Assembly (NCBI GenBank): GCA_016193315.1
Contig: JACPSJ010000001.1
Location: forward strand, 471,478-535,477
Source: Candidatus Kerfeldbacteria bacterium
Lineage (GTDB): Bacteria > Patescibacteriota > Patescibacteriia > SBBC01 > CAIJZX01
Direction: 5' to 3'
DNA: 64,000 nucleotides
The position numbers and the translations under genes were made by a program. Numbering within the stretch: the stretch's first letter is position 1; the number at the start of each line of letters is the position of its first letter. The notes under the pieces are model-generated. The model did not search any database, had not been told where the DNA came from, and saw only the letters and a list, made by a program, of their open reading frames with translations. Below, piece by piece: positions 1,186 through 23,151 of this stretch.

Positions 1186-1357
1186 GACAACTAACTGTGC
1201 CGAGGATTCGGCTTACGAGATGCTCTGCGTCTTGATCGGTAAGCGCTAACCGCACCACTCCCAGGCGGAGTTGTGCGGGGCCCCGAATCCGAAACTCCAA
1301 AGTCCCACCAACGGGCTGGGGGTTCCGTCAGCCTGCGGCACAGCGATCGGATCTACC

Positions 1358-1822
1358 ATGGCCAACGCCAAGGTTGATCAACAGCTTCGATCCAGCTCGA
1401 CGCTGGCGAGGTTGACCACCAAACCAAAAAACAAACCAGCCGAAATCCTCTTCGGCACCCACCTGACCCTCGATGGCTACGGAGCCAGCGCCAGCCGACT
1501 GAATGATATGGACACGGTCTTTACGGCCCTCAACGACCTGCCGGACTTGTTGGCGATGCAAAAGATTACCACTCCCTACGTCGTCAGATTCGCGGGTAAC
1601 GAGAAAAAGGACCCGGGTGGTTACTCGGGGTTCGTCATGATCGCCGAAAGCCACATTTCGGTCCACACTTTTCCCGAGCGCGGGTTTGTAACCATTGATG
1701 TGTACACTTGTCAGGGCCAGCTTGACGTCAAAACCTGCATCTCCTACTTCACCAGCCTGTTTCGTGCCCAGCGTTGGGAGCGCCACGTGATACGGCGCGG
1801 CCGGCATTACGGACGACAGTAA
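1358..1822 (+). CDS. S-adenosylmethionine decarboxylase proenzyme, small pyruvoyl-dependent type
   Basis: AESHISVHTFPE ... IDVYTC motifs typical of class-1 AdoMetDC. ATG at 1358 is in frame within the longer tracked ORF. Confidence 0.7.
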   Translation: MANAKVDQQLRSSSTLARLTTKPKNKPAEILFGTHLTLDGYGASASRLNDMDTVFTALNDLPDLLAMQKITTPYVVRFAGNEKKDPGGYSGFVMIAESHISVHTFPERGFVTIDVYTCQGQLDVKTCISYFTSLFRAQRWERHVIRRGRHYGRQ

Positions 1823-21481: not shown

Positions 21482-21873
21482 GCGCTATTTCGCTTTGGCT
21501 CGTCCTCCACCTGAGCGGTGCGGCACTAGTGGCCGCCCTCATCATCGCGGCGGTGATCGCCCTGCTCCACAGGCGTCGCCAGTGGTACCGACCAGTCGCA
21601 TTTGGCTTGGCGATTCTGGTTGGGTGGCAACTCACCACCGGCGCTTGGCTTTCCCTTCTCTCCACTCATTCACCTTCGCTCGGTGCTTACTGTCGTAATA
21701 TTGGGCTCTACCTGCTCGTCATCGCGGCCACTTTATTCTGCCTGTACCGACGCATGCAGGTGGAGCGGTTGAAACGATTCCCCCTGCCTTTGACTTTGGC
21801 CAGCGGGGGAATCGGGATACTGGTCGCGGTGTTGGCGGCCTTGTCAATATTCGGAAAACTGGCTAGACTATAA
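21478..21873 (+). CDS. Small polytopic membrane protein
   Basis: 131-aa ORF with four hydrophobic segments. ATGA overlap with the HAD gene. Confidence 0.5.
   Translation: MSAISLWLVLHLSGAALVAALIIAAVIALLHRRRQWYRPVAFGLAILVGWQLTTGAWLSLLSTHSPSLGAYCRNIGLYLLVIAATLFCLYRRMQVERLKRFPLPLTLASGGIGILVAVLAALSIFGKLARL
21841..21869 (+). promoter_or_regulatory. Putative promoter for the metK leader (TTGTCA-N17-TAGACT)
   Basis: ttgtca 21841-21846, 17-nt spacer, tagact 21864-21869, placed just before the riboswitch start. Confidence 0.35.
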
Positions 21874-21882
21874 CCACAACCC

Positions 21883-22078
21883 ATCTATCAAGAGCGCAGA
21901 TCAGAGCCCTGGCTCGATGCCGGCCGTCGTCAATCGGCGCCGGCGGTAATCTGCCGACAACCTACCCCGAACCGAAGCATCAGCCATCGGTTCGCCGGCA
22001 AGGTGCCAATTCCAGCCTCATTCGTTTGAGTGGGGGAAGATAGCAGCGATCGTTGCGCTTCCCCCAGCCGGGAAAGCG
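21883..22078 (+). ncRNA. SAM-I (S-box)-like riboswitch with apparent translational (SD-sequestering) expression platform, upstream of metK
   Basis: CUAUCAAGAG at the 5' end. GCAGAU/AUCUGC P2 pairing. GACAACC and AAGGUGCCAAUUCCAGC conserved core. P4 hairpin CUCA-UUCGUU-UGAG. 3' P1 strand GAAGAUAG. Then GGGGGAAG ... CUUCCCCC hairpin and CUUCCC complementary to the GGGAAAG SD-like sequence before the ATG at 22081. Confidence 0.7.
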
Positions 22079-22080
22079 TT

Positions 22081-23151
22081 ATGCATCTGCCGCCGGTCTA
22101 CACGGTTGAGTCGGTCACCAGTGGTCATCCCGACAAGGTTTGCGACCAGATTTCGGACGCCATTCTCGACGCCTGCCTGGCGCAAGACCCGTATTCCCGG
22201 GTAGCCGTAGAAACGTTCGGCGCCCACGGCCAACTGATGATTGGCGGCGAGGTGACGACCACCGCGGACGTTGATTACGCCGCCATTGCCCGCCACGTGT
22301 ACCACCACATCGGCTACGGCGACGGGATCGACATCAACGTTCACGTTTCCTCCCAGTCGCCCGACATCGCCCGGGGTGTCGATGCCGGTGGCGCCGGCGA
22401 TCAAGGAATCATGTATGGCTTTGCGACCGATGAAACACCCGAAGGACTGCCCGCCGGCGTCGTTCTTGTCCATCGCCTGACCAAGGGCTTAGAGAATCTG
22501 CGCCGACATGACCAGCGCTTTTCCTTCCTTGGCCCTGACGGCAAGGCCCAAGTGAGTATTGAGCGTCGGGGCGTGAGCGCGGTGGTCGTCAGCGCGCAGC
22601 ATAACCAAGGGGTGACGCTGGAGGAACTCCGACGAGCATTATCTGATCATTTGGTCGAACCAGTGATCGATAGTCTTGACGGTGTGGGGGCCCATATCAA
22701 TCCGGCCGGGGCCTGGCACCGGGGGGGATTCGCCGCCGACACCGGACTGACTGGGCGGAAAATCATGGTCGATACCTACGGCGGAATTATCCCGCACGGC
22801 GGTGGGGCGTTTTCCGGCAAAGACGCCACCAAGGTTGATCGCTCCGGGGCCTACATGGCCCGTTTCGTGGCCAAGCAGATAGTGGCCAAAGGGTTGGCCA
22901 GACAATGTTTGGTGTCAGTGGCCTATGCCATCGGAAAAGCGGAGCCGGTAATGGTCGCAGCCACAGACGAAAATGGTCGAGACATTTCAGCCCACGCTCG
23001 GCAATTCGATTTTCGGCCCCAGGCTATTATTGAACGGCTCGGACTACGCCAGCCGATCTTCCAGCAGACTGCTGCGTACGGCCATTTTGTCGTATTAGTG
23101 TGCAGCCGTTGGTTCCACAACTACAGAAGCTGCCGCGCCGAACGGTCCTGA
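22081..23151 (+). CDS. metK: S-adenosylmethionine synthetase MetK
   Basis: ESVTSGHPDKVCDQISDAILDA ... GGGAFSGKD ... TAAYGHF motifs. The C-terminus after GHF is shorter than and divergent from E. coli MetK. Confidence 0.9.
   Translation: MHLPPVYTVESVTSGHPDKVCDQISDAILDACLAQDPYSRVAVETFGAHGQLMIGGEVTTTADVDYAAIARHVYHHIGYGDGIDINVHVSSQSPDIARGVDAGGAGDQGIMYGFATDETPEGLPAGVVLVHRLTKGLENLRRHDQRFSFLGPDGKAQVSIERRGVSAVVVSAQHNQGVTLEELRRALSDHLVEPVIDSLDGVGAHINPAGAWHRGGFAADTGLTGRKIMVDTYGGIIPHGGGAFSGKDATKVDRSGAYMARFVAKQIVAKGLARQCLVSVAYAIGKAEPVMVAATDENGRDISAHARQFDFRPQAIIERLGLRQPIFQQTAAYGHFVVLVCSRWFHNYRSCRAERS

Follow-up and report, generated by a model that had tools for sequence, protein, structure and literature searches.

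SAM-I or S-box riboswitches (RF00162), as known from the Bacillus subtilis yitJ and metK leaders and the metF aptamer of Thermoanaerobacter tengcongensis, are built around a P1-P4 four-way junction. This layout is shared by the leader preceding metK in the DNA analyzed here, a contiguous stretch of 64 kb from a candidate-phyla-radiation (CPR) bacterium which is referred to in its whole length as the window. The likeness to SAM-I further comprises J1/2 (AAGAG), the P3 core (CAACC with GGUGC), J3/4 (AAUUCC) and the J4/1-P1 segment (AAGAUA), as well as the pseudoknot between the P2 loop and J3/4, the place before metK and a switching strand overlapping the 3' side of the aptamer. In contrast to the described members, the window element possesses a three-way junction with an extra hairpin instead of the P2 K-turn, a longer P3 with an A.C mismatch at its base and a P1 of only 5 bp, and it scores 27.6 bits against an Rfam gathering cut-off of 44.4. 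Unlike in typical SAM-I leaders, moreover, the platform appears to hide the RBS and lacks an intrinsic terminator. Judged from these comparisons, the window element most probably descends from SAM-I and works like it, deviating from the class in the curated score and in the K-turn and conforming to it in the other features tested. Accordingly, we regard the leader at 21882-22080 as a SAM-I-class riboswitch exerting translational control of metK by SD sequestration, a reading to which we assign a probability of roughly 0.75.

Among the described systems, a SAM-I riboswitch reported to act mainly at the level of translation is SAM-I(Xcc) from Xanthomonas campestris (PMC7270179). Its SAM-I aptamer is coupled to translation initiation via anti-SD/SD pairing, an arrangement resembling the one deduced for the window, and a tRNA-sensing feature has been reported in addition (PMC7270179). 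The two differ in phylum, in the gene set controlled (a met operon in X. campestris) and in the platform sequence. To our knowledge, a P2 junction of the window type has not been reported for SAM-I(Xcc). A related ligand-pocket core is also found in SAM-IV (RF00634) and SAM-I/IV (RF01725), both belonging to clan CL00012 and tending to be devoid of a K-turn. In these classes, P4 is located 3' of P1 and a second pseudoknot is formed; in the window, by contrast, P4 (22016-22035) is located inside the junction, with J3/4 preceding and the 3' strand of P1 following it, and the best match within the clan is RF00162. With respect to P2, the k-junction has to be considered, an elaborated K-turn known from TPP riboswitches that has become a three-way junction, with a third helix interrupting the non-bulged strand while the G.A pairs are kept (PMC4005666). 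The window likewise has a three-way junction where the helix must bend sharply for a tertiary contact, but it is the bulged (3') strand that carries the hairpin, following a GAU loop, and tandem G.A pairs are missing. In engineered SAM-I RNAs, the K-turn has been functionally replaced by other kinks (PMC4316175).

The metK locus and its SAM-I aptamer

The gene metK (22081-23151, forward strand) encodes an S-adenosylmethionine synthetase with all three S-AdoMet synthetase Pfam domains (PF00438, PF02772, and PF02773). The gene product is 100% identical to protein P0001 and 60-71% identical to proteins from metagenome-assembled genomes of Patescibacteria (CPR). Upstream, an ORF encoding a hydrophobic protein of 131 aa ends at 21873, leaving a leader of 207 nt up to the metK ATG (22081-22083), just the gap described in the earlier sequence-only reading of this DNA. 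Within the 3' end of the upstream ORF, a promoter-like site (TTGTCA, 17-nt spacer, TAGACT; 21841-21869, forward strand; 9/12 matches) is found, a single occurrence compared to 0.3 expected, whose function is putative. Relatives show TATACT and, 3' of it, an ACAAC motif at an equal spacing from the aptamer, and the transcript likely starts a few bases 5' of P1. About 30 nt 5' of the promoter-like site and still inside the ORF, there is a perfect 10-bp inverted repeat, CGATTCCCCC / GGGGGAATCG, at 21775-21784 / 21805-21814. Its arms resemble the CUUCCCCC and GGGGGAA strands of the leader, and between the 3' arm (21805-21814) and the anti-SD strand (22056-22065) complementarity reaches 90%, which could be of relevance if read-through transcripts exist. 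At the other end of the gene, 120 bp are absent from the window at 23089/23090 when compared with two otherwise 100% identical contigs (L161, 2510-2629). In L161, this piece comprises the native MetK C-terminus (GKPGLPWEQ and stop) plus 91 nt of spacer; due to its absence, the metK ORF of the window ends in a foreign 20-aa tail (356 versus 345 aa). The gap may stem from the assembly or may reflect a genuine deletion variant.

When scanning the whole 64-kb window with Rfam at the curated gathering thresholds, no match was obtained. In a permissive scan of 21800-22150 (351 nt), RF00162 was the only match and aligned to 21882-22046 over its full length (model positions 1-108) with E = 3e-4, with P2 taking up 57 nt where the model expects 24 and P3 36 nt instead of 3. 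The Rfam check proposed along with the SAM-I assignment was thus borderline, the full-length alignment speaking for membership and the score, well under the cut-off, against it, and the case could therefore be settled only by comparison with relatives. A covariance model for the clade, derived from the metK leaders of 15 Patescibacterial loci, leaving out the window and with the structure set by hand, matches 21882-22046 with 50.9 bits and an E-value of about 6e-11 (model positions 1-113), which is its only match on either strand of the 64 kb. It also matches 50 of 66 related Patescibacterial metK loci. RF00162 itself is found above cut-off directly 5' of metK in 14 of the 20 nearest genome loci, that is, at the very position which the element occupies in the window. 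The alignment of the 15 leaders shows 92.2% of cells paired and double changes in 16 of 24 pairs, with none out of 500 shuffles being as good. When MAFFT and RNAalifold were combined on 22 leaders, on the other hand, insertions disturbed the alignment so that nothing beyond the pseudoknot and a P4 stub was obtained, and for this reason the structure was hand-set on the cleaner one of 15 sequences. Two large collection scans with MetK did not reveal anything above 69% identity, and closer relatives (68-71%, and 100%) only came from a protein search and contig look-ups. The Logan contigs L161 and L162 equal the window across the whole leader and hence do not provide comparative information. Taken together, the full-length RF00162 alignment and the independent clade model indicate more than a chance resemblance, and the element directly 5' of metK is almost certainly a homologous SAM-I-class aptamer, as had been proposed. 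A second SAM riboswitch was not found in the 64-kb window, neither with Rfam at gathering thresholds nor with the clade model. Consequently, none precedes the ORF at 1271-1822 (forward strand), which carries the motif ESHISVHTFPE and which we take, by recognition of this motif, to encode AdoMetDC; the earlier statement that this gene is devoid of such a leader is borne out.

Within the stretch aligned by both RF00162 and the clade model, the aptamer extends from 21885 to 22043, with all its elements on the forward strand. P1 is formed by CUAUC (21885-21889) and GAUAG (22039-22043), amounting to only five contiguous base pairs, and is followed by J1/2 AAGAGC (21890-21895), a conserved part of the ligand-pocket core matching the consensus of both models. 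All motifs listed in the sequence-only reading were located where it had placed them, to within one base: CUAUCAAGAG at the P1/P2 junction (21885-21894), a P2 helix of GCAGAU (21896-21901) and AUCUGC (21949-21954), GACAACC (21956-21962), the core motif AAGGUGCCAAUUCCAGC (22000-22016) and GAAGAUAG (22036-22043) with the 3' strand of P1. Two of the hairpins, however, have to be assigned differently. The GCCGGC hairpin exists (21919-21944) but is an extra arm of P2 and not P3, which is instead found at 21956-22007, with GACAACC pairing at its base with GGUGCC, as deduced from the alignments and inverted repeat I9. Likewise, CUCA and UGAG are present at 22017-22020 and 22027-22030, but in the register of the relatives, and in the RF00162 alignment, P4 (22016-22035) consists of CCUCAU (22016-22021) and GUGGGG (22030-22035). 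This register agrees with leaders L166 and L083, where GGGG is directly 5' of AAAGAUA; CUCA/UGAG can be an alternative pairing, possible in the ON state. The distal P3 is extended by pairing of 21965-21966 with 21997-21998 and of 21968-21975 with 21987-21994, the latter 8-bp stem being reported independently by the repeat finder. Between P3 and P4, J3/4 AAUUCCAG (22008-22015) includes CCAG (22012-22015), the pseudoknot partner of CUGG in the P2b loop (21909-21912). Besides complementarity, this pseudoknot is supported by covariation in relatives, showing CG in 15, UA in 3 and AU in 1 at one pair and UA in 18, CG in 3 and AU in 1 at the next.

Hence, P1-P4 are arranged around one junction, in order and over the full model, and all proposed aptamer pairs are canonical. 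The core is intact, with J1/2 AAGAG, P3 CAACC with GGUGC, J3/4 and J4/1-P1 AAGAUAG matching the consensus of both RF00162 and the clade model. Presumably, these positions, including the J1/2 AAGAG, the C-A-A with U-G in P3 and the A-U and U-A pairs of P1, make up the SAM pocket as in published SAM-I structures; the neighboring A21957.C22006 mismatch at the P3 base departs from the G-C of the consensus. This replacement of a near-invariant G-C pair beside the ligand pocket characterizes one CPR SAM-I sublineage, being common to the window and leaders L083, L085, L092, L108, L112, L113, L163-L168, L170, and L171, and covariation is seen at the pair flanking it, which is G-C in the window but A-U in L083. 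In thermodynamic terms, the predicted four-way junction is only partly reproduced. Alignment and canonical pairing argue for it, and folding the aptamer without constraints yields an MFE structure (-64.6 kcal/mol, z = -3.1) that contains P1, the GCCGGC arm, distal P3 and P4, but in which the 3' strand of P2a is re-paired with the 3' strand of P3. Enforcing the SAM-I fold gives -59.6 kcal/mol, 5 kcal/mol above the MFE before pseudoknot and ligand are counted. The sequence AUCUGCCG occurs twice, at 21949-21956 (3' strand of P2a) and at 22085-22092 (metK codons 2-4), so that the 5' strand of P2a can pair with either copy; in the MFE of the whole leader, it is the downstream copy that is paired. 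Chance could well produce such an 8-mer repeat within about 220 nt.

The expression platform in the window and among relatives

Downstream of the aptamer, two mutually exclusive hairpins on the forward strand make use of the common strand CUUCCC (22058-22063). The first, termed anti-sequestor (22032-22065; inverted repeat I6), is the alternative hairpin noticed in the earlier reading, and pairs GGGGGAAG (22032-22039) with CUUCCCCC (22058-22065). The repeat finder reports the two strands as a 9-nt inverted repeat of 100% complementarity (22031-22039 / 22058-22066), and an inner stem is formed by 22043-22047 with 22052-22056, resulting in a predicted energy of -20.8 kcal/mol. Its 5' arm draws on J4/1 and the 3' strand of P4 as well as on G22039, the first base of the 3' strand of P1, which is thus common to P1 and the anti-sequestor. 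The second hairpin, the sequestor (22055-22079; -12.2 kcal/mol predicted), ends 1 nt before the AUG, with UAUG following the stem. The pairing of CUUCCC with GGGAAAG which had been expected here is recovered, but as part of a longer predicted stem, in which GCGCUUCCC (22055-22063) pairs with GGGAA(A)GCGU (22070-22079). In its 3' arm resides the SD-like GGGAAAG (22070-22076), to which we tentatively ascribe the role of the SD; GGGA would be a weak one. At the corresponding position, relatives show AGGAAAG, AAGGAAG, AAGGAGAG or AAAGG. A survey of start codons in the window gave a few clear AGGAGG or GAGG cases and was too noisy to define SD usage because start sites are uncertain. In models of the whole leader, the OFF and ON folds reach -60.2 and -64.0 kcal/mol, respectively, and are therefore within 4 kcal/mol of each other before pseudoknot and ligand are counted. 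In line with SD sequestration, the modeled folds and the comparison with relatives place an RBS-like site in a helix that excludes, and is excluded by, one overlapping the aptamer, with both helices being conserved.

Direct support exists for the homology and structure of the aptamer, for two helices that exclude each other and that are conserved and covary, and for the lack of a terminator. On this basis, a switch with SAM as the probable ligand is proposed. At low SAM (ON), GGGGGAAG, comprising the 3' strand of P4, J4/1 and the first P1 base, would pair with CUUCCCCC, keeping the SD-like GGGAAAG and the AUG free, and MetK would be made. At high SAM (OFF), the ligand would lock P1 and P4 and thereby occupy GGGGGAAG. 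The freed GCGCUUCCC would then pair with GGGAAAGCGU, burying the RBS in a stem separated from the AUG by a single nucleotide, and initiation of translation would be blocked. With SD sequestration as the primary event, the main effect might still be brought about secondarily, either by termination through Rho or because metK mRNA that is not translated decays faster. Such secondary effects are a general property of translational riboswitches in other bacteria, but the present data do not point to any rut site, Rho gene or RNase site of this organism, and a contribution of this kind, which we consider rather improbable as the main effect, would add to the sequestration mechanism and not replace it.

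Among the relatives, the nine closest leaders (L163-L171, with MetK 68-71% identical) are most informative on the platform. All nine have kept the sequestor stem with an SD-like 3' arm and lack a U-run of more than three, the AUG beginning 1-9 nt 3' of the stem. The anti-sequestor is kept in L163-L168, L170 and L171, thus in all but L169, which is truncated on the 5' side. In terms of sequence, the nine show GGGGRAAG with CUUYCCCC or CUUYCCCC with an SD-like arm located 1-9 nt 5' of the AUG. The three strands involved covary, as the window triplet G22036:C22061:G22072 corresponds to A:U:A in L163. Compensatory changes in the sequestor are seen in this leader as well as in L164, where GCG/CGC of the window is UUA/UAA, and in L168 with AAG/CUU changed to AGG/CCU. 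As MAFFT had placed the 3' arms of six platform sequences out of register, these helices were checked by folding each sequence separately.

More distant leaders, about 45 in number, form from the same strands (GGGAAAGAU, AUCUUUCC, GGAAAG) a stem followed by U5-8, i.e., a terminator, to whose stem the sequestor of the window corresponds, only that no U-tract comes after it. In several of these, e.g., L103, L089 and L110, there is no gap between the U-tract and the AUG. From this correspondence in position and sequence (CUUUCC...GGAAAG, then U5-8), it could be argued that the hairpin at 22055-22079 is an intrinsic terminator as well and that control is transcriptional, as in most SAM-I riboswitches. 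In the window, however, UAUG directly follows the stem in place of a U-tract, so that the AUG begins 2 nt after it, and a terminator-like site was not found anywhere in 21600-22300. Moreover, the U-tract is absent from all nine closest relatives but kept in GC-rich leaders outside this sublineage (L012, L089, and L112), indicating that its loss is lineage-specific and not due to simple GC drift. Termination at this hairpin is consequently very unlikely, and the earlier proposal of a translational rather than a terminator-type platform, made from the missing U-tract, gains support from the conservation in relatives. From the comparison of the leader sequences, we conclude that the window lineage has probably turned a terminator-type platform into a translational one.

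Several other arrangements were noticed in the leaders compared. L085 (1398-1496) and L092 (396-490) are compact SAM-I aptamers without P4 hairpin that score above the Rfam cut-off (45.4 and 53.7 bits, respectively) and have the metK start codon inside the 3' strand of P1 (GAUAUG). Hence, the aptamer itself would occlude the start, pointing to translational control elsewhere in the clade. The P3 of L086 (1188-1457) contains about 150-200 additional nucleotides which split the aptamer and are bounded by an inverted repeat of about 20 nt (TTAAGTCTGTTGCCATTTAA / TTAAATGGCAACAGACTTA); they could represent a small element that has been inserted or else P3 itself, extended to a great length. Besides, a glmS ribozyme (52.6 bits) is located just 3' of metK in a Kaiserbacteria genome (L007, 4168-4361), demonstrating that other classical cis-regulatory RNAs occur in CPR. 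A limited literature search for riboswitches in CPR/Patescibacteria did not reveal anything specific.

A three-way junction in place of the P2 K-turn

The P2 domain (21896-21954, forward strand) forms a three-way junction, as deduced from canonical pairing and the MFE of the isolated domain. Its basal helix P2a is made up of 21896-21901 and 21949-21954, P2b of 21904-21906 and 21913-21915, and the hairpin GCCGGC...GCCGGC (21919-21944) is inserted between P2b and the 3' strand of P2a, thus constituting an extra P2 arm, P2c. The three helices are joined by the strands CA, GAU and GGUA. At the place of the K-turn, a GAU bulge followed by P2c is found instead of GA, with CA on the opposite strand and without tandem G.A pairs. 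The same kind of three-way junction is the MFE of the isolated P2 domain not only in the window but also in L164, L083 and L168, and junctions of the P2c type recur in L164, L168, L083 and L025 with stem sequences that are unrelated and compensated. A different topology is seen in eight other leaders (L100, L110, L023, L024, L104, L105, L163, and L167), in which the P2 hairpin is inserted into the 5' (non-bulged) strand. This corresponds to the k-junction topology, and some of these leaders keep the GA on the 3' strand, e.g., L110 with UUUGAU. We know of no previous description of k-junction topology in SAM-I.

Other readings of the window P2 were discarded. A K-turn is incompatible with the impossibility of tandem G.A pairs, and a k-junction with their absence as well as with the insertion being in the bulged (3') strand. 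A dispersed palindromic repeat was rejected as an explanation of P2c since a second copy does not exist in the window, even when allowing up to 3 mismatches.

The low RF00162 score of the window is attributable to the P2c hairpin sitting inside P2. Generally, P2 insertions cost about 20-30 bits, and leaders bearing one reach similarly low values (24.6 bits for L168 and 34.6 bits for L083) or, as in L163, L164 and L167, are not matched by RF00162 at E < 0.01. Relatives having a normal K-turn and the same platform, by contrast, pass the cut-off (L166 with 54.9, L171 with 58.2 and L170 with 53.2 bits), the latter despite a 110-nt insertion in P3. Enlargement is also evident from the aptamer lengths, which span 95-197 nt in CPR, with at least 130 nt in 13 of 52, compared to 92-109 nt in the complete non-CPR leaders from the same searches (n = 21). 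CPR might accordingly harbor an unrecognised structural subclass of SAM-I, in which the P2 K-turn has repeatedly been replaced by three-way junctions of two topologies, with the hairpin on the bulged strand as in the window or on the non-bulged strand in a k-junction-like manner, and which still binds SAM but is missed at the Rfam cut-off. We consider the chances of this broader proposal to be about even.

Several features count against a functional SAM-I switch in the window, namely the 27.6 bits, the missing K-turn, the A.C mismatch by the pocket, the 5-bp P1 and an enforced fold lying above the MFE. Taken to the extreme, the element could be a decaying relic, in which insertions, K-turn loss, A.C mismatch and short P1 have abolished sensing and left metK constitutive, in line with the score under the cut-off and an MFE without P2a or the P3 base. 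However, no damage is seen in the core and pocket positions, in the complementarity of the pseudoknot or in any of the helices, and A.C mismatch, 5-bp P1 and platform are also present in L166, L170 and L171, all passing the cut-off. As, in addition, five lineages possess junctions of the P2c type, the stems of which are compensated, decay appears highly improbable. Least probable of all is a shift of the SAM-I architecture to another ligand such as SAH or a different adenosyl compound, for which the unusual A.C mismatch by the pocket and the remodelled P2 might be adduced, but against which stand the pocket nucleotides, unchanged by the RF00162 alignment, and the regulated gene being metK, with SAM as its product.

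In conclusion, translational SAM-I riboswitches (PMC7270179) as well as the replacement of the K-turn in engineered RNAs (PMC4316175) are already known, and the existing knowledge of how SAM-I riboswitches work is not changed by the metK leader. New is a natural three-way junction with a bulged-strand hairpin instead of the K-turn, together with its recurrence in CPR and the resulting blind spot in Rfam annotation. In evolutionary terms, loss of the U-tract would make a terminator-type platform purely translational while all three switching strands are kept. The natural K-turn replacement is directly testable, SAM-I being a standard host for K-turn studies, and if the proposed subclass holds true, the P2-junction aptamers of CPR would represent a natural experiment on what can substitute for a K-turn. 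For the Patescibacteria, this means that SAM-I riboswitches are under-called at the Rfam cut-off and that leaders of this kind are recovered by a clade-aware model.
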